DNA of 16,214 nt, taken from NCBI GenBank assembly GCA_003345595.1, contig PRDI01000036.1, positions 1 to 16,214 on the forward strand, in the 5' to 3' direction. Below the pieces are notes generated by a model that did no database searches, was not told where the DNA came from, and saw only the letters and a list, made by a program, of their open reading frames with translations. Both the position numbers and the translations under genes were made by a program. Of this stretch, positions 925 through 12,314 are shown piece after piece (position 1 is the first letter of the stretch; every line of letters begins with the position of its first letter). The stretch is from Candidatus Thorarchaeota archaeon (lineage in GTDB: Archaea; Asgardarchaeota; Thorarchaeia; Thorarchaeales; Thorarchaeaceae).

Positions 925-2139
925 CTAGAACCTGGGGCTGATGTATCGTGCGGCACTTAGCAAAGCGATCATCGTGCGAGGGTTGGCCAAGAGACCCGCG
1001 ATAGTTGTACCCTGCATGTCCATGTCTCCCTCTCTCTTCACAGTGTCAGTCAGGCTCAGTTCGTCCGCATTCTTTACTAGTGAGTCTAGTCCCCGGTCCG
1101 AGAAAGAAGATATCGCCCGTTGAGCGAGATACATCGCTCTCATTTGTCCCAGTAGAAGAGAGCGCCAGCTGGTTTCATAACGTCCCAGAGAACGTGCAGA
1201 AGCGTCCCTCTCGGAAACAGCAAGCGCGGCTGTCTTGCCTGCAATCTTGCCACTGATGCCCCCAAATACTACACCTCCCCCGGTGGTTGCTTTTACCATT
1301 CCAGCTGCGTCTCCAACAACGACAAGACCGGACATGAACGTCTTCTTAACGGGTAAACCGACGAGGACTGTTCCACCGATTCCCCGCAGCACAGATGCCT
1401 TCACCAGCTTTCCACTGATAATGGGATGATGTCGCATGACTGCCTCCAGTCGGGGCTTCGACTTGAAGTCAGATGCAAGGCCGACTCTTGCTCGGCCGTC
1501 GCCCAATGGGATAATCCAAGCGAAGAAACCAGGTGCTGTTTGTCTGCCATAGTACATTTCGACTAGATCATCATCAACATCGGCTCCCTGAACCTCGTAC
1601 TGATATGCAGGGTATTTGCTGGTCCTATGAATCATTGGCAGTCCTACCGACCCTGAAAGCCTACCCTGCACCCCCTCTGCGTCGATAGTCACGATTGCCT
1701 TTCTCTGTACCACCGCACCGTCTTCGAGTGTTTCCACTCCAACAACAGACCCATCATGAGTCTTCAAGGCGCGCACCTTGACTCCTGTGATAATAGATGC
1801 GTGTGCCTGCACCGCTCGTTCGGCAAGCCACGCATCAAACTTGCGCCTGTCGACGACGACTGCCTCATGACGGCCACGCTCAACCAAGAGCGACCGGCCA
1901 GATGGCGCATAGATTCTCGCTGCGCGTACAGTGTTCTGAATTACCTGTTGTGGAGGTTCCAGTCCTAGTATCTTGAGCCCCGACAGACTGAGAAGCCCAG
2001 CACAGTGGTCGGGCTCGCCTACCTTTGGGTGTTCCTCGAGCACAGCCACGTCATGCCGTCGAGCTGCAATCGTCCATGCTGTCAGCAACCCTGCTGGCCC
2101 GGCGCCAATCACAACTGCATCGTGGTCGAGAGTCTTCAT
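925..2139 (-). CDS. Geranylgeranyl reductase family FAD-dependent oxidoreductase (digeranylgeranylglycerophospholipid reductase-like)
   Basis: DAVVIGAGPAG FAD-binding motif just after ATG 2139; HCAG, APGFFAWIIP and VVGDAAG motifs. The ORF-track extension to 2352 overlaps pth2 and is unlikely to be translated. Confidence 0.88.
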   Translation of the reverse strand: MKTLDHDAVVIGAGPAGLLTAWTIAARRHDVAVLEEHPKVGEPDHCAGLLSLSGLKILGLEPPQQVIQNTVRAARIYAPSGRSLLVERGRHEAVVVDRRKFDAWLAERAVQAHASIITGVKVRALKTHDGSVVGVETLEDGAVVQRKAIVTIDAEGVQGRLSGSVGLPMIHRTSKYPAYQYEVQGADVDDDLVEMYYGRQTAPGFFAWIIPLGDGRARVGLASDFKSKPRLEAVMRHHPIISGKLVKASVLRGIGGTVLVGLPVKKTFMSGLVVVGDAAGMVKATTGGGVVFGGISGKIAGKTAALAVSERDASARSLGRYETSWRSLLLGQMRAMYLAQRAISSFSDRGLDSLVKNADELSLTDTVKREGDMDMQGTTIAGLLANPRTMIALLSAARYISPRF

Positions 2140-2596: not shown

Positions 2597-3949
2597 ATGC
2601 TACCTGCACATCCACTCGAACAGCGGGTGGGTATGGAGTTCTATTGCACCGATTCGCCCGGACTCGGAGGAAGACTCAGAGAGAGGTTTGAAGACTTCAT
2701 CGTTGAAGAGATAACACCCGAAGGGTCCGTCCTATCATTAGGGGACTGGTCCAGTGAACCAGTTTCAGAAGCACAACTGGCTGCTTCCGTGACAGGTGAA
2801 CGCTCCAAGTACGTCAAGTTCACACTTCAAAAGATGGGGCTCTCCACGCTTGACGCCGCGGGCATCATTTCCGCTGCTCTGAAAATCCCGCGATACTTGG
2901 TCACCTACGCTGGTCTGAAGGATAAGCGCGCCATGACAGTGCAAGCGATGTCAGTGTCAAGACAGGCGTCTGTAGCACTAGGTGGTCTTCGCCTCTCAAG
3001 AATCGTGCTGAGAGATTTGGAGTATGTTCGGCGTCCTGTACAAGTGGGCGACCTGTGGGGCAATCGTTTCACTCTGTTGTTGAAGAACATGACAGTTGAC
3101 TGCAACGCAGGGTGTGAGATGGTAGAGTCGTTCAAGGGGCGCTCGATATTGAACTACTTCGGCATACAACGTTTCGGTGTGACCCAGCCCTCCACACTCT
3201 TGGCTGGAAAGGCGCTCATAAAGAGGGACTACGAAAGCGCGGTCCGACGGATAGTCGCAGCAGCAAGCATCTCTGAAGAAGATACGCCCACCAACGTAGG
3301 TGAAGGGTCGAGTCCAGACACAGAGATCACGGAGAGCATGCTTGATCGGGTCTCTACCGGCGCAAGATATGAACGAAGCGTCATACAACATCTCATCAAA
3401 CACCCGGGCGACTACCAGAAAGCAATGACCAGAATTCCGCCACGCATTCTTACGCTTCTGGTCCATTCATATCAGAGCTACCTGTTCAATCGACTCCTTA
3501 GTGAGCGCGTGAGGTCCGGTTCCTCAATAGACCAGCCGGAGATTGGGGATTTCATAATCCAGCTGGACGAGACGCACTCAGGACGAGACTCATGGCTGTA
3601 TACAACTGAGAGGACTCTTGAGGAACGGCGGACAATGGTACGTTCAGGTCGCTATGGTCTCGCAGCGCCGGTACCCGGATACTCCACAAAGCTGCCACCA
3701 TCAAGGCAATCAGACTACCTCAGAAGTATACTAAGTGCTGAGGGTGTGGCTCTTGTCGACTTCAGGAACCCAGAGTCGAGAGCGCTGGACTCGCCCGGTG
3801 GTCTTCATCTTGTTTCAATGGAGCCTTCGAATCTCTGTGCAGAATGCACAGAAAACAGTCTCAGACTACAGTTCAGCCTCAGAAAGGGCTCATATGCCAC
3901 TGTCTTTCTCCGCGAGCTGATGAAGGGTGATCCCAGGGACTTAATCTAG
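2597..3949 (+). CDS. truD: tRNA pseudouridine(13) synthase TruD
   Basis: EDFIVEE, YAGLKDKRAMTVQ (catalytic Asp), GDLWGNRF, NYFGIQRFG, LRKGSYATVFLRELMK; pth2-truD tandem is a common archaeal arrangement. Confidence 0.95.
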   Translation: MLPAHPLEQRVGMEFYCTDSPGLGGRLRERFEDFIVEEITPEGSVLSLGDWSSEPVSEAQLAASVTGERSKYVKFTLQKMGLSTLDAAGIISAALKIPRYLVTYAGLKDKRAMTVQAMSVSRQASVALGGLRLSRIVLRDLEYVRRPVQVGDLWGNRFTLLLKNMTVDCNAGCEMVESFKGRSILNYFGIQRFGVTQPSTLLAGKALIKRDYESAVRRIVAAASISEEDTPTNVGEGSSPDTEITESMLDRVSTGARYERSVIQHLIKHPGDYQKAMTRIPPRILTLLVHSYQSYLFNRLLSERVRSGSSIDQPEIGDFIIQLDETHSGRDSWLYTTERTLEERRTMVRSGRYGLAAPVPGYSTKLPPSRQSDYLRSILSAEGVALVDFRNPESRALDSPGGLHLVSMEPSNLCAECTENSLRLQFSLRKGSYATVFLRELMKGDPRDLI

Positions 3950-4530
3950 CGTTTCGGCTGCTTCTGCGTGAAGCTCTTCATCCTTTCCTCGAAAACATCG
4001 GATGGTTTCTCCTCTGTCTTCTTGGTTTCCTCCTGATACTGGAAAAGTACCGACTCTCCGACTGCTGCTGACGCGATTAGTCTGAGCTCTTCAAGAGAGT
4101 ATGGAATCCTAGACTTGTCTTCCGATCGGAGTACGACTATGTTCTCTCTTGTTCTGTCGGGCAGGAAGAGACTGTTGACGCCAAGCTCGACCGCGGGATG
4201 TATCAGTTCTTTTACTACGCTGCGCAGGCTTAGTGGGCCCTCGATTATGAGGACTCTTCCAAATGCCTTGCCCATCTCGTCCATGAGTTCCTTCTCAGAC
4301 AGTAGAAGGTCTCTCCCCTTCTTCTTGACAATCAGGACGAGTCTGTCTGCCACACGCAGCGCCCGCAAAAGACTGAGGTCCCCGATGGCTGGGAACTGTT
4401 TCTGACGTTCCAAGAGCCATTTGCAGAAGTCTACATCGAACTGTGTGATCTCACCCTTGTCCAGCTTCTCTTGACAACTGGGGCAGAGCATATCAGACTC
4501 AACATCGAATACACAAACCGGCAGACGCAT
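3946..4530 (-). CDS. Archaeal NusA-like transcription factor paralogue (NusA2 type, N-terminal Cys cluster plus KH-like domains)
   Basis: N-terminus MRLPVCVFDVESDMLCPSCQEKLDKGEITQFDV and later ELIHPAVELGVNSLFLPD resemble the archaeal NusA-like family. Confidence 0.8.
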   Translation of the reverse strand: MRLPVCVFDVESDMLCPSCQEKLDKGEITQFDVDFCKWLLERQKQFPAIGDLSLLRALRVADRLVLIVKKKGRDLLLSEKELMDEMGKAFGRVLIIEGPLSLRSVVKELIHPAVELGVNSLFLPDRTRENIVVLRSEDKSRIPYSLEELRLIASAAVGESVLFQYQEETKKTEEKPSDVFEERMKSFTQKQPKR

Positions 4531-4917: not shown

Positions 4918-5246
4918 CCGAAGCATCTCCACCAGCTGTCACTCGTTCAGGCATAGGCGCTAAGCCAAGTGCCTCTAATATTGGTTTCGATTATCATTGT
5001 GGCAAACACGAGAATTATGCCATCTGCAGACCAAGGACATTTCCAAGTCCGATTCTCTGGGGGTTAAGGGTTCAGCAGAGGGCAGAAATCATGCACAATA
5101 ACGCATGTTCCATTTGACAGTCCTGTCGTATGTGATTGCTCAGACAAGCGCCTATCACTACCTTCACGTCTTTCTCCGACAGTAAGGCTGCCCTTCAGCA
5201 AGGCTTTTCTTCAATAGGTCTGGCCCTGATGTGGAAGTTCTACGCG

Positions 5247-6512
5247 ATGGCGAAACTGACCTTTCTTGGCTCTTGCAGAGAAATAGGACGTTCGGCTTTC
5301 TGTCTAGAGGAACACGGGGAGAGCGTTCTGGTGGATCAAGGTGTCAAGTTTGTTGACAACCCCGTGTTTCCAGACCGTATTTCAGCGACTGGGCTTCAGG
5401 GAGTCGCTCTTACTCATGCGCATCTAGATCACTCTGGTGGAATACCACTGATCCTCTCGCGGAATGACGTGTCACTGTTCTGTACTCCAGCCACGCGTGA
5501 CCTGAGCACTCTACTCGTCGAAGACATGTTTCAGATAGCCAAGGCCCGGCTTCCTTTTGCTCACAAGGACATAGCCCTTGTTCATCGTCGGTGTCAATCA
5601 ACATCATATGAGGAAACAATCCCTCTGGGTCGAGAGTTTGAGCTCACACTCTTCAATGCGGGTCACATCCCTGGTAGCGCAATGGTTTCGGTTAGAGCAA
5701 ATGGCAAGAGAATTCTCTTCACAGGTGACTTCAACTCCATCGAAACGCAGCTGAACGCCGGCGCAAGGAAGAACCTGCCAAAGCATGACATAGTCGTGAC
5801 CGAGAGTACGTATTCTCAGCGACTCAATGCAAAGAGAGAGGAGATTGAGGCCGAGTTCATCCAGTCGGTCCTCGAAGCCCTAGAGCGCGGAGGAACTGTT
5901 CTCATTCCTGCGTTCGCTGTAGGACGTAGCCAAGAGATCATGTGCATATTCGAAAAATGTAACCTGCCTCAGAAGTACACGGTCTATGTAGACGGACTGG
6001 CCAGAATGGTGAACGAGGTCGTAGCCAAGCATCCCGGATATATAGCGTCACCCCAGTCATTTGAGAGGGCGCTCAAGAGAACAGAGAGTATAGTCAGTGA
6101 CAAGGACCGCCTACGTGCAGTCAAGAATGGCGGTGTGATCATATCACCCGCAGGGATGCTCAAGGGTGGCCCCTCTCATATGTACTTCAAAATGCTGTAT
6201 GATGACAGCAAGAGCTCAATAGTCTTGGTAAGCTTCCAGATACCCGGGACTCCCGGTGCAGAACTGCTTGCGAAGAAGAAGATGACAGTGGGCAACAGAA
6301 CATACGACGTTGCAGCAGATGTCAGATTTCATCACTTGAGCAGTCACTCGGACTCCGCAGGACTGATGGACGTTCTCGAAAAGATACCTGGTGACCCACA
6401 GTTCTACTGTGTCCATGGCGAACCTGACTCATGCGATGCACTGGCTAAGAAACTGAATGACATCGGCAGACAGGCACATGTACCTCAGCTGAATGAATCG
6501 ATTCAGTTCTAG
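5247..6512 (+). CDS. Beta-CASP metallo-beta-lactamase ribonuclease without N-terminal KH domains (aCPSF2-like)
   Basis: MAKLTFLGSCREIGRS start; THAHLDHSG, AGHIPGS, FTGDF, ESTY, PAFAVGRSQE, SSHSD, VHGE motifs; 421 aa from ATG 5247. Confidence 0.88.
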   Translation: MAKLTFLGSCREIGRSAFCLEEHGESVLVDQGVKFVDNPVFPDRISATGLQGVALTHAHLDHSGGIPLILSRNDVSLFCTPATRDLSTLLVEDMFQIAKARLPFAHKDIALVHRRCQSTSYEETIPLGREFELTLFNAGHIPGSAMVSVRANGKRILFTGDFNSIETQLNAGARKNLPKHDIVVTESTYSQRLNAKREEIEAEFIQSVLEALERGGTVLIPAFAVGRSQEIMCIFEKCNLPQKYTVYVDGLARMVNEVVAKHPGYIASPQSFERALKRTESIVSDKDRLRAVKNGGVIISPAGMLKGGPSHMYFKMLYDDSKSSIVLVSFQIPGTPGAELLAKKKMTVGNRTYDVAADVRFHHLSSHSDSAGLMDVLEKIPGDPQFYCVHGEPDSCDALAKKLNDIGRQAHVPQLNESIQF

Positions 6513-6518
6513 TAGACA

Positions 6519-6731
6519 CTACTCTTCTGCCTTGGGCTTTGCCTCAACGACTTGGCACTTCACCTGCTGGAGGATAGTTTCGGCCTGCTGGGGCTCAACA
6601 ATCAGTGTGTATAGGTATCTTCCCGTTCGGAGCTTAAGCTTGACCTGATCACTGCTCCTCTTCACGCGACACTCGGTTGCGCTCTCAGTCATCTCAAGGA
6701 ACTTCGCCACATCAGTTATCTGTCTTGGCAT
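6519..6731 (-). CDS. rpl38e: 50S ribosomal protein L38e
   Basis: MPRQITDVAKFLE...VKLKLRTGRYLYTL matches the eL38 signature (KxKxRxxRYLYTL); 70 aa from ATG 6731. The 179-aa ORF-track version is over-extended. Confidence 0.92.
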   Translation of the reverse strand: MPRQITDVAKFLEMTESATECRVKRSSDQVKLKLRTGRYLYTLIVEPQQAETILQQVKCQVVEAKPKAEE

Positions 6732-6819
6732 TTGTAGGCCTCTGATTGCATTCTTCTGAGCCGTGACTAGGAGCGACTCGGCTCGCTCCTCCCTTTCAGA
6801 GTTTCCCATGGCATTCACA

Positions 6820-6826
6820 TTATAAG
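6820..6826 (-). promoter_or_regulatory. Candidate TATA box for rpl38e
   Basis: CTTATAA on minus about 90 bp upstream of the ATG, preceded by CATT, the same CATTCTTA context as the tRNA-Val promoter. Confidence 0.45.
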
Positions 6827-7039
6827 AATGTCGGAATGTGATGCTAGACTCATACACACGCCTGAAACCCAGCACATTGTGGCTGACCTGCAATGCTGTC
6901 AGTTGCTTTAGGAGTGATTCAGAAACAGGACAGAAACTTCGCCCCATTAGAGTTGTCAACAAGCACTCCAACGTAGTCAGATGAGCGCAATGCCATGTGC
7001 TGGGCGAATCCGCGTCCTCTATCATCCGTTGTATGGCCG

Positions 7040-7058
7040 AACAACCAAGAAGAATCAA
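7040..7058 (-). terminator. Possible T-rich archaeal terminator after tRNA-Val
   Basis: TTGATTCTTCTTGGTTGTT immediately follows the CCA end. Confidence 0.3.
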
Positions 7059-7075
7059 TGGTGGGCAGGAGGGGA

Positions 7076-7106
7076 TTTTCTACGCACAGGGTGGTCCTGC
7101 GCTGTT
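7076..7106 (-). other. tRNA intron 2 (31 nt) at position 59/60 (T-loop), relaxed bulge-helix-bulge
   Basis: T-stem as outer helix; central TTCG/AGAA (3 Watson-Crick pairs plus G-A); bulges AG^A and AA^T; inner AC/GT then GCGCAGG/CCTGTGC stem. Removal restores a 7-nt T-loop; the junction could be 58/59 instead. Confidence 0.82.
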
Positions 7107-7121
7107 CTCGAACCCCCGACA

Positions 7122-7153
7122 TAGGCGGGCAGACGCATCGCAGGCAGCTGCCA
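7122..7153 (-). other. tRNA intron 1 (32 nt) at position 44/45, strict bulge-helix-bulge
   Basis: AC/GT outer helix; GGCG/CGCC 4-bp central helix; 3-nt bulges GA^T and TA^T; GGCAG/CTGCC inner helix. Removal restores a 5-nt variable loop ATGTC. Confidence 0.88.
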
Positions 7154-7224
7154 TCCGCCGTGTGAAGGCGGTATCATAACCGGACTAGATCACCTGCCCT
7201 TGGCCCGCAGGTCTGTCTGCTGTG

Positions 7225-7232
7225 TATTTAAG
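7225..7232 (-). promoter_or_regulatory. TATA box of tRNA-Val
   Basis: CTTAAATA 26-33 bp upstream of the first tRNA base. Confidence 0.65.
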
Positions 7233-7685
7233 AATGATGGCGGGGTGATGAGGGATCTTGAGTGGGGTATCTCTTTGACACACGATCCATGTCTTCCCAC
7301 TTGAAACCTAGGGTTTCCATCGCAGATGTCATGGGCAAGCTTCTCGTTCGATGTGGGTTCGTGATAGTCTGCCATCGACTTGGCACATCTCCGTCCCCGT
7401 TCCGCCTCTAATCTTCCATCCCGAACCTTGGACTCAAGACATTGATGCATGACGCTGGCTCTCGGGAGCAGGTGGTGTCAATGGCTAGATAACGCCATGC
7501 GGACGTTTGCCATGACCGCAATACACGGCGACCCAAGTCATGATCGTATAGACAAGTATGACAAATGCAAGGCCAACGTCCATGGGCAGACATGTATTGG
7601 AGTTTCAGTGTCAGAATGCTGGAAACTGCAAAAGGATAGATAGTGCTTCCTATTGCATGGTTTAGTTCCACGCATCACAGGGAAA

Positions 7686-7844
7686 CTATTTCTTCCCACG
7701 CCTCTTGGGCCTGAGGTCGTCCGACTTGCACTTCCTGCACTTCTTGGCCTTGAGGGGGTTGGTTGCACCGCAGTAGCGGCACACAGACTTGTACAGCAAA
7801 TAGTGCTGAGCCAGCCTGCGCTTCTCGATGTCAGATATGGGCAT
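7686..7844 (-). CDS. rpl40e: 50S ribosomal protein L40e
   Basis: Manual translation (52 aa, below ORF cutoff): MPISDIEKRRLAQHYLLYKSVCRYCGATNPLKAKKCRKCKSDDLRPKRRGKK; CxxC...CRKC zinc finger and LRPK signature. Confidence 0.95.
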   Translation of the reverse strand: MPISDIEKRRLAQHYLLYKSVCRYCGATNPLKAKKCRKCKSDDLRPKRRGKK

Positions 7845-7918
7845 GTCAAGGTCCTCATTAAGTGCTTGACGGACTAGGGTTTCCCGTGAGCCCGCTCAGG
7901 CTTCGGAGCGTGGTTGTG

Positions 7919-10043: not shown

Positions 10044-12314
10044 TTAGCTGCTCTCCGTGAGCATAGCTGTCAGTTCGCTCTGCAGTCGAAAGATCTCCTT
10101 GTGCAATCCGTTTCGTTTGTCCGCTGCCAAGAGCCTGAGAAGAATGGAGTTCACATAGTGTAGCTCCTCAAGAATGTTCTCAACTATGCCTGGCATGTCT
10201 TTTTCGCTCCGTATTGCCTGCTCGATGCTGTCTGCCGGAACTGAGTCGATGACCCGTTTGACCAAGTCCTCTGGTAGGTCTGTCCTAGCCACGGTCACAC
10301 CCACAAGAAGGTCTCTCACTCTGCCACTCCCTCTTGCGACTGCTTTCATCACCTTCTTGGCGTCTCGAACGGGCACTCCAAGAACTGCCACGCTGGCACC
10401 CAGATCGGTGCATCTGACGGCCTTTCCGTCGCGTATGATCAGGTCGTCATGCTCCATATCATCAAGCACCCGGAGACCGCGTAGAGCCTGCCCTATCACG
10501 GATGCTGCATATGGTCTGGTTTCCTCACTCTTGAGTGCGAATGAACAGAACTTGACTAGATGCTTGCAGAGCCTGTGGTTCCTTATTCCTTGATACTTCC
10601 AAGACTCACAGGAACATGACACTCCCTCGGCCGGCCTGAGTGTCACGTAGTGCCATAGCTCTCTTGTGCCGCTATGAATGAGTCCCTCAATTTTGAAGGG
10701 AGTGACTGACACAAATTTCACTCTTGAATCGGATATCTCGTCGGCGCGCTTGACCGTAGACCTAGTGGTACGAAGAGAGATGATATCACTGACGGCAGAA
10801 TCATCAAGGGAAACCATTGATTCGTGGGTGATCCCCTTAGCCCGGTTTGTTGCTGCCCAGTATGTGCGGCTGATGATTGCATACGGGTCATCCGTTACTG
10901 CACTCCTTCCACACAGCTGGCTGATGACCAAGTCCTGGATGTTCTCGGGATCGTCCATGCAGCTGTCTACTTCCCCGAGCCTCGGACTGATATTACCATC
11001 TCTGTCTTTGGTGAAGAACTTGTCCAAGACTCGCGTACGTTCTGACTCCTTGTCAACAACGACAATCGCGAAAGCCTCATTGTCAACCCCTGCCCTGCCT
11101 GCTGACTGCAAGACGTCATTAAGCTGCCACTCAGAAAGCATAGTCAGGTCCTCGGTTCCGACGACGTCTTTGCTGACATCTTTCATGAACACCCCGACCA
11201 GAAACACCACAGTCGCCTTGATACCACTGGCGATCGCGAATCTTGTGGGCATGACAACTACCGGCAGAAGCCCCTCCTCCCATGCAGACGACACTTCCCT
11301 TCTTTGGGCTCTGGAAACTCCTTCGTGCAGAAAGGCGACACCTCTCAGGACAGCACTTGCAAGGCGAGAGGTCACTTCGCATTTTGAATACTTGTCCCGC
11401 ACTTGGTTTGAGAGAATCCTGAGGTCATCTTGATGAGAGGGTGTCAATCTGAGGTCAAGGGGTGAGGGCCTGTCCACTCCGGACGTTCCTGTCAAATGAG
11501 CTGCTAATTCCTCGCAAGAAGCTATGTCAGGACACAGTATCACTATCTGTCCGCGACGGTAATGCACGAACTCCGTGATGTCTGCCAACGACTCACGCAC
11601 GCTACTGAATGCCTTCACGCTGAAGATACGCTTCACCTCGGGCTTCGTGTCTTCCACAATGTCTGCATGCAGCCAGAGGCTCAAGTCCTTGAGATCTGCA
11701 ACAGGCGGGCATGTGGCTATGTACTGTGTCCCTTGACCGTGACCCATTAGATTCACAAGCGTCGTTTCAAGTGTCGCGCCAATACCTGGCTGCCCAATCA
11801 AGTCGAGACGCTCGATGATGATACATTGGAGGCCTTCCAGCAACTCAGGATGAACTCTCAGCGCTATGTCAAGGGAACCATAGGTTCCAACCACGACACG
11901 CCCGCTCTTCCACTCCTGACTTATGGCAGTACGCCTACGTATGGCCTCAGCTCCCTCAACCCCAAGCCGTCTGCACTTCTGTATCAAAGAGGAGTATCTC
12001 TTTTCAGCCTGGTGTGCATTTGGACAGAGAACCAACGCTCTAGCCTTGTAGTCAGTTAGAAGCCTGTTCAGAGCTGCAATCTCTGCTATCTGATACGCCT
12101 CATCATAATCATATGTGACAAGCAGCTGGCTTGCGCCTCTGAGCACGCCCTTCTCCAATGTAGCAGTCTGAAATCCTGACAGTTTGACAAGACCTTGTTT
12201 CCTGAGAAGCTCCAGCAGACGCGGCGAAGTTTGCTCAAGCTCGAGCTCTCTCAAAGTACTCAATTGGTCTAAGCCCCAAGCGGTCAGATGCGCGAGGAGA
12301 TGAGAAGTTATCAT
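10044..12314 (-). CDS. Hel308/Ski2-like SF2 helicase homologue with degenerate ATPase motifs and an inserted SWIM zinc finger (probable pseudo-helicase)
   Basis: Q-motif-like GLVKLSGFQ; VVVGTYGSLD (Ib); GVAFLHEGVS; QSAGRAG (VI-like); CTDLG winged-helix end. Walker A position reads TYDYDEAY and Walker B reads IIIERLD. SWIM motif CSC-x12-CKH. TTG 12263 is an alternative start. Confidence 0.8.
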   Translation of the reverse strand: MITSHLLAHLTAWGLDQLSTLRELELEQTSPRLLELLRKQGLVKLSGFQTATLEKGVLRGASQLLVTYDYDEAYQIAEIAALNRLLTDYKARALVLCPNAHQAEKRYSSLIQKCRRLGVEGAEAIRRRTAISQEWKSGRVVVGTYGSLDIALRVHPELLEGLQCIIIERLDLIGQPGIGATLETTLVNLMGHGQGTQYIATCPPVADLKDLSLWLHADIVEDTKPEVKRIFSVKAFSSVRESLADITEFVHYRRGQIVILCPDIASCEELAAHLTGTSGVDRPSPLDLRLTPSHQDDLRILSNQVRDKYSKCEVTSRLASAVLRGVAFLHEGVSRAQRREVSSAWEEGLLPVVVMPTRFAIASGIKATVVFLVGVFMKDVSKDVVGTEDLTMLSEWQLNDVLQSAGRAGVDNEAFAIVVVDKESERTRVLDKFFTKDRDGNISPRLGEVDSCMDDPENIQDLVISQLCGRSAVTDDPYAIISRTYWAATNRAKGITHESMVSLDDSAVSDIISLRTTRSTVKRADEISDSRVKFVSVTPFKIEGLIHSGTRELWHYVTLRPAEGVSCSCESWKYQGIRNHRLCKHLVKFCSFALKSEETRPYAASVIGQALRGLRVLDDMEHDDLIIRDGKAVRCTDLGASVAVLGVPVRDAKKVMKAVARGSGRVRDLLVGVTVARTDLPEDLVKRVIDSVPADSIEQAIRSEKDMPGIVENILEELHYVNSILLRLLAADKRNGLHKEIFRLQSELTAMLTESS

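Follow-up and report, generated by a model that had tools for sequence, protein, structure and literature searches.

The question raised by this locus is whether a short minus-strand stretch of an archaeal contig, on which the common tRNA finders are silent, encodes a working tRNA-Val(CAC) that is interrupted twice at unusual sites. The window, by which is meant the whole stretch of DNA analysed, is contig PRDI01000036.1 (16,214 nt), and the genome to which it belongs (G000) comprises 2.73 Mb in 129 contigs, with 52% GC and 83% completeness. The host is a Thorarchaeia MAG, DNA of which was found in wetland metagenomes. Part of the initial annotation had been made conditional on an Asgard origin, and this origin is borne out by the neighbouring succinyl-CoA ligase beta gene, which shares 75-92% identity with genes from Candidatus Thorarchaeota MAGs. 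It is considered very probable (about 0.93) that 7199..7059 on the minus strand is a functional, cis-spliced tRNA-Val(CAC) gene of this archaeon, with two introns bounded by bulge-helix-bulge (BHB) motifs. The 141 nt are divided as 46 + 32 + 15 + 31 + 17 nt (exon, intron, exon, intron, exon), and the parts of the locus are as follows.

7225..7231, minus strand: TATA-like box TTAAATA, at -32..-26 from the tRNA 5' end; putative promoter element
7154..7199, minus strand: exon 1, 46 nt; acceptor 5' strand, D arm, complete anticodon arm and position 44
7122..7153, minus strand: intron 1, 32 nt; site 44/45, at the boundary of anticodon stem and variable loop
7107..7121, minus strand: exon 2, 15 nt; variable loop 45-48, T-stem 5' strand and T-loop 54-59
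7076..7106, minus strand: intron 2, 31 nt; site 59/60, in the T loop
7059..7075, minus strand: exon 3, 17 nt; U60, T-stem 3' strand, acceptor 3' strand, A73 and encoded CCA (7061..7059)

Once both introns are removed, the spliced product of 78 nt, CCA included, is called by ARAGORN as tRNA-Val(cac) with a regular cloverleaf. The stems of this fold measure 7 bp (acceptor), 3 bp plus U13.U22 (D), 5 bp (anticodon) and 5 bp (T); the anticodon loop is UUCACAC, the variable loop has 5 nt, the T loop reads UUCGAGU, and the molecule ends in A73 and CCA. The anticodon CAC is located at 7164..7162, inside exon 1, and the uninterrupted anticodon loop means that there is no intron at the 37/38 site. The coordinates, strand, lengths and junctions proposed in the initial annotation were thus reproduced by reading of the sequence and by ARAGORN on the spliced form, and its description of a full cloverleaf appearing after both removals, with an intact 37/38 site, agrees with this call and with the intronless orthologs considered below.

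The same annotation had stated that standard scans would pass over the gene, and this was found to be the case. ARAGORN called no tRNA on the whole raw window, and Rfam gave zero matches there at the gathering score. At E<=10, Rfam returned for the raw locus only weak, partial look-alikes (Tymo tRNA-like and tRNA-Sec), the tRNA family itself not being matched. Forms from which one insert had been removed gave no ARAGORN call either, the cuts tried being 2 nt off the 44/45 and 59/60 junctions.

The TTAAATA box and its flanks are conserved in three congeneric genomes (G001, G002 and G003), and similar boxes, starting at -38..-32, occur at about half of the tRNA genes of the host genome, TTAAATA itself standing at the modal position. 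An encoded CCA was present in all other true tRNA genes that ARAGORN found in this genome. The TATA box and the encoded CCA that had been attributed to this gene are therefore both in place.

The strongest evidence came from comparison with related genomes, which placed the exon boundaries independently of any motif. When the 141-nt locus was searched by BLAST against 40 relatives, full-length matches were obtained in two congeners, G001 (95%) and G002 (82%), both of which carry both introns at the same sites. The third congener, G003, and about fifteen members of the family matched query positions 1 to about 46 only, which is exon 1. This exon matched the tRNA-Val genes of around 20 related genomes at 80-95%, with the match ending at query 45-48; its identity to the family's intronless Val(CAC) genes is 89-94%, and it scored 55 bits with a covariance model (R1) built from intronless Val tRNAs only. 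Uninterrupted tRNA-Val(CAC) genes, which cross both predicted joints, were found in G003, of the same genus, and in G024, G021, G006 and G014. The intronless orthologs read ...GGCGGAUGUC..., matching the predicted joint: GGCGG-AUGUC in G003 and G024 is identical to the exon 1/exon 2 joint of the host gene, and the T loop UUCGAGU in G021 and G006 is the predicted exon 2/exon 3 joint. Three of the four intronless orthologs checked scored 57.6-62.8 bits with the Rfam tRNA family (cut-off 29). A motif-free gapped alignment of the host locus with the intronless G024 gene recovered insertions of 32 nt and 31 nt. The G003 ortholog (L004, about 1474-1548, minus strand), besides being without both introns, was observed to have C5-G68 rather than A5-U68, and its CCA is not encoded (...CCCACUA).

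BHB motifs had been proposed at both junctions, and both were found in register. The standard motif, attributed to the 2003 work of Marck and Grosjean, consists of an outer helix and a 4-bp central helix with a 3-nt bulge on each strand, the cut falling after the second bulge nucleotide, and this geometry was used for scoring. At intron 1 the central helix GGCG/CGCC is fully paired (4/4), the bulges are GA-U and UA-U (the hyphen marks the predicted cut) and the intron helix GGCAG/CUGCC has 5 bp; the outer helix has just 2 bp, and the motif, strict otherwise, is relaxed in that element. At intron 2 the 5-bp T stem acts as outer helix, the bulges are AG-A and AA-U, and the intron helix consists of 2 bp, a 1-nt bulge and 7 bp, the relaxed element being the central helix UUCG/AGAA, with 3 bp and a G.A mismatch. 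Because each motif is relaxed in one element, processing of both would depend on the predicted broad-specificity splicing endonuclease (EndA) described below.

Adjacent registers of both junctions scored much worse. The observed quality was reached in register by 0.13% of the in-place shuffles of intron 1 and by 2% of those of intron 2 (0.0013 and 0.02), and by random genome windows at frequencies of 1.5e-5 and 1.5e-4, respectively. When all BHB-like candidates were enumerated and each resulting product was tested with ARAGORN for Val(cac), the combination of 44/45 and 59/60 was the best pair in G000, G001 and G002. In G002 the central helices are 4/4 at both sites, and the intron helices have been rebuilt with different bases.

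The two motifs stand in different relations to the cloverleaf. The intron 1 motif pairs the 3' strand of the anticodon stem with an intron-borne decoy copy of the 5' strand, and so competes with the anticodon stem. In constrained folding its conformer had the same predicted energy as the unconstrained minimum (-57.5 kcal/mol), and it is thus predicted to be isoenergetic with a cloverleaf-like fold. The intron 2 conformer costs +2.7 kcal/mol; this motif uses the T stem as its outer helix and can therefore coexist with the cloverleaf.

The exact cut register of each intron is predicted from motif geometry together with the orthologs, and a real spliced gene with other junctions has to be weighed. 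In such a gene intron 1 would have 30 nt and the variable loop 7 nt, or intron 2 would be located at 58/59, giving a T loop of UUCGAAU, or both. The alternative register of intron 1 also forms a BHB (4/4/3), and ARAGORN still calls tRNA-Val from it, but a 5-nt variable loop was present in all 14 orthologs except the distant G026, for which a 4-nt loop was placed by the pipeline, and the exact AUGUC of G003 and G024 speaks against a 7-nt loop. For intron 2, the motif-free alignment puts the T-loop gap at 58/59, since G024 reads UUCGAAU. In that register, however, two of the four central pairs form and there is no intron helix, whereas the 59/60 register gives G002 its perfect 4-bp central helix, and the resulting UUCGAGU loop is shared not only with the intronless genes of G021 and G006 but also with the genes of G020 and G013, in which the T loop is uninterrupted. 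Other junctions are accordingly regarded as quite improbable.

Processing at 44/45 and 59/60 is also in keeping with the way in which the locus has diverged. Identity to the host gene over the exons is 78/78 in G001 and 73/78 in G002, compared with 57/64 and 43/64 over the introns. All seven differences between G000 and G001 are inside intron 1, in the bulges and the loop, and in both congeners the BHB helices are kept while loops and bulges vary freely. Pairing is preserved throughout the stems of 14 spliced or intronless orthologs, the conserved U13.U22 being the one exception. Pair 5:68 is A-U in the three intron-bearing congeneric genomes, whereas ten relatives have C-G and one has G-C; as read from the alignment, this is a compensatory change that links exon 1 with exon 3 and spans both introns. 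Four pairs of the T stem covary as well, exon 2 with exon 3, in the same 14 orthologs. The locus DNA was present in metagenome contigs of two studies, and a strain variant from an independent metagenome run (X4) differs only at 7137/7139 and by one inserted base, all in the loop of intron 1. A search for sequencing runs containing this DNA returned no RNA run, and the joined, intronless form was not found among the DNA contigs from metagenome runs, a result that carries no information on expression.

These patterns bear directly on the idea of a decaying tRNA pseudogene, which would carry two insertions and stay unprocessed while GUG codons were read by Val-UAC or by a Val-CAC gene that was not assembled. 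Val(UAC) could read GUG through wobble, and 17% of the genome is unassembled. Against decay, identity between species is 100% and 94% in the exons but has fallen to 89% and 67% in the introns, compensatory changes maintain pairing in the exon stems as well as in the BHB helices, and the promoter box and CCA have been retained. Nor is the interruption itself a sign of decay, since it is shared by many other tRNA genes of the same genome. An intact tRNA-Val(CAC) elsewhere in the genome, the counter-case named in the initial annotation, was looked for and none was found; BLAST and a Val-specific covariance model returned no other Val tRNA gene from the 83%-complete assembly. A pseudogene is therefore thought very improbable.

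Negligible probability is given to chance resemblance, or to a T-arm-less tRNA-like element of 74 nt (7126-7199) ending in intron 1: covariance model R1 does align 7126-7199 at 55 bits, with CUGCCC of intron 1 as a pseudo acceptor 3' strand, but this alignment, which bears out exon 1 only, has mismatched pairs, no T arm and no discriminator plus CCA, the sequence downstream of 7126 supplies a perfect T arm, an acceptor strand, A73 and CCA, and the three-exon model alone is supported by orthologs and covariation.

For the two-intron tRNA-Val gene, the enzymes that would be needed are encoded in the same genome. Two EndA paralogs were found. In the alpha paralog (188 aa) the conserved positions of the catalytic motif are occupied by Tyr, His and Lys, and the protein aligns end to end, at 170 bits, with Aeropyrum pernix 3P1Z_B, the catalytic subunit of an (alpha-beta)2 enzyme; the alignment takes in an N-terminal loop (...RKPKSAEF...) in the L1 loop region. 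The other paralog, of 241 aa, is without the catalytic His and looks like a structural beta subunit. Judging from these sequences, the set is predicted to form an (alpha-beta)2 EndA with an L1 loop, a type that can cleave motifs of relaxed or non-canonical form. RtcB was recognised by a PF01139 match of 561 bits on contig C78, where the gene is truncated by the contig end.

In the proposed pathway, the TATA box would drive transcription of a precursor of about 141 nt, in which each short intron and the adjacent exon bases would fold into a bulge-helix-bulge. The (alpha-beta)2 EndA, with its broad-specificity L1 loop, would then cut after the second nucleotide of each 3-nt bulge, and RtcB would join the three exons into a tRNA body of 75 nt plus the encoded CCA. 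We infer transcription, cleavage and ligation at this locus, and the same holds for the order of the two splicing events.

The tRNA-Val gene is not an isolated case in its genome. ARAGORN with intron search reported 22 tRNAs in the whole assembly, one of them false and 13 with introns, and this set included no Val, Met, Phe, Tyr or His tRNA; Rfam gave 21 tRNAs above the cut-off. Hidden tRNA genes were defined by acceptor pairing, U8, a T-stem plus UUCRA (an intact start of the T loop) and an encoded NCCA, a scan that misses genes with D-arm or acceptor-stem introns and is a lower bound. It recovered the Val locus and at least five genes missed by ARAGORN, all with an encoded CCA and two with weak Rfam matches.

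C52 6349-6454, minus strand: tRNA-Lys-UUU; one 29-nt intron at 59/60, from BHB-guided splicing
C86 13696-13801, plus strand: tRNA-Gln-CUG; 30-nt intron at 59/60, from BHB-guided splicing
C49 52651-52788, plus strand: tRNA-Pro; anticodon-arm intron and 30-nt T-loop intron, from BHB-guided splicing
C75 43027-43167, plus strand: tRNA-Lys-CUU; two introns, the T-arm intron of 37 nt as placed by the pipeline
C14 5900-6071, plus strand: fifth gene, 172 nt; at least two introns

A T-loop intron of 29-30 nt at or near 59/60 was seen in four of these five genes, so that the suggestion that other 'missing' tRNAs might be split in the same way proved correct. No mutual relatedness of the intron sequences of the five genes was apparent by eye. 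A separate locus, C106:12486-12593 (plus strand), was labelled 'tRNA-Pyl(cta)' with an intron by ARAGORN; this is probably an intron-bearing tRNA of some other identity that was wrongly resolved, and not a pyrrolysine tRNA.

Interruption of the Val(CAC) gene is also seen in relatives, at varying positions. Introns at 59/60 were found in three genomes of other genera (G007, G012 and G022), and variable-region introns in G020 (at 45/46), G011 and three more distant genomes (G026, G036 and G037); those of G013 and G023 are in the anticodon arm. The combined BHB and ARAGORN pipeline was unable to resolve G011, G013, G036 and G037, where junctions are more relaxed or introns longer, and the introns of these four were read by eye. 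Intron sequence similarity between genera was not evident, and BLAST of the 141 nt against the host genome revealed no intron paralogs, with just chance or T-arm matches of 14-19 nt.

Within the genus, G003 is without both introns, as are most other genera, and G000, G001 and G002 share the introns together with the derived A5-U68 pair. On these sequences the pattern may reflect either a gain in the lineage of the three genomes or a loss in G003. A bolder version would have both introns gained recently within the genus and intron 1 built from its own tRNA, making this a dated case of self-templated intron birth. The 5' part of intron 1, GGCAGCUG, matches tRNA positions 2-9 at 7/8 bases (7122-7153 against 7192-7199, minus strand), its 3' part, UCUGCCCGCC, matches positions 66-75 at 8/10 (against 7059-7068, minus strand), and the intron also holds the copy of the anticodon-stem 5' strand. 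By a rough, post-hoc estimate this self-mimicry is not clearly beyond chance, because it is partly forced by the BHB pairing, and such an origin seems unlikely. If true, it would bear on the route of intron arrival, which has been described as the central open problem (bioRxiv 10.64898/2026.10.13.758758). The 3' part of intron 1 is also able to pair with the acceptor 5' strand, and covariance model R1 mistook it for the tRNA 3' end.

Introns of this kind have been reported in other archaea. The sites 59/60 and 45/46 are listed as non-canonical intron positions in Crenarchaeota (PMC4090602). Within the Asgard archaea, introns occur in 92-95% of the tRNA genes of Atabeyarchaeia and Freyarchaeia, often non-canonical and multiple, and some of these genes are missed by tRNAscan-SE (Valentin-Alvarado et al., 2024; PMC11291895). 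A 2026 preprint on 90 Asgard genomes found that 30% of the intervening sequences in its three focal families had been missed, among them T-arm insertions with strong motifs; Thorarchaeia are unnamed in its main text (bioRxiv 10.64898/2026.10.13.758758). An (alpha-beta)2 EndA with an L1 loop, the loop being linked to broad substrate specificity, was found across Asgard, and incomplete predicted tRNA sets were attributed to unidentified disrupted genes (Kaneta et al., 2018; PMC5829648). Of the proposal that the lineage has an under-described, intron-rich tRNA complement, the intron richness holds, but 'under-described' does not, given these publications (PMC5829648, PMC11291895, bioRxiv 10.64898/2026.10.13.758758).

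The closest parallels to the tRNA-Val gene are the genes of Atabeyarchaeia, Freyarchaeia and Jordiarchaeia, which belong to the same superphylum and likewise have at least two short non-canonical introns, sites in the T arm and the variable region, BHB boundaries, an EndA as permissive background and a history of being missed by standard annotators. The present gene differs in its Thorarchaeia host, which is outside the focal families of those studies, and in showing a contrast within one genus between G003, with neither intron, and G000, G001 and G002, with both. The Thermoproteales and other Crenarchaeota share the hBHBh' or relaxed HBh' motifs (Marck & Grosjean, 2003; Sugahara, 2008; PMC4090602) and the same class of mechanism, an (alpha-beta)2 EndA with a crenarchaeal/L1 loop, as predicted here from the genes. 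They are of another phylum, and 44/45 is absent from the 'such as' list of sites in PMC4090602; transposed intron families have been reported in Thermoproteales, in contrast to the host genome, where similar intron copies were not found by BLAST. The survey that covered Thorarchaeota SMTZ1-83 reported the same (alpha-beta)2 EndA with L1 loop, a Thorarchaeote included, and predicted hidden genes (PMC5829648), whereas here one such gene, for tRNA-Val, is worked out at nucleotide resolution and proven by comparison.

Split (trans-spliced) and permuted tRNA genes, as in Nanoarchaeum, Caldivirga and Cyanidioschyzon, have similar BHB-type junctions and use the same enzymes, but in the present locus the exons are about 30 nt apart with one promoter, which amounts to cis-splicing; a split or permuted gene was rejected, the exons being collinear, on one strand and inside 141 nt. 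Group I and group II introns were likewise rejected: the introns here measure 31-32 nt, whereas a ribozyme core takes up hundreds of nucleotides, and there was no match to an intron family of Rfam.

A known pattern is thus extended to one Thorarchaeia genus and not first revealed here, and knowledge of the splicing mechanism is unchanged by this locus, both phenomenon and mechanism being already known in Asgard archaea and Crenarchaeota. What it adds is a nucleotide-level example of a tRNA gene that is invisible to ARAGORN and Rfam, backed by strong comparative evidence from intronless and intron-bearing orthologs in a single genus. It shows that Thorarchaeia, too, have the heavily interrupted tRNA complement reported for other Asgard classes, and that tRNAs 'missing' from such MAGs are an artefact of annotation and not a biological gap. 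The presence and absence of the introns within one genus also makes the locus suitable for dating the gain or loss of introns.

The downstream neighbour of the tRNA gene, recognised by Pfam L38e and its translation, is as follows.

6519..6731, minus strand: rpl38e, about 70 aa, starting MPRQI

The order of tRNA-Val(CAC) upstream of rpl38e is shared by many relatives. The spacer between the two is about 327 nt in the host genome and much shorter in other genera, very roughly 50-130 nt by eye. Two open reading frames that touch the locus were rejected as gene models. The 179-aa frame at 6519-7058 (minus strand), which abuts the tRNA, is an upstream over-extension of rpl38e, Pfam L38e matching its residues 111-165; the frame at 7190-7450 (minus strand), which overlaps the tRNA, has no Pfam match. 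Pfam also gave no match for three further minus-strand frames of the window, 10044-12314 (756 aa), 3946-4530 (194 aa) and 7538-7858 (106 aa). Genes for a TruD/Pus7 tRNA pseudouridine synthase and an aCPSF-like beta-CASP RNase (2597-3949 and 5136-6512, both plus strand) were observed less than 5 kb from the tRNA, which is probably a coincidental clustering of RNA-processing genes.
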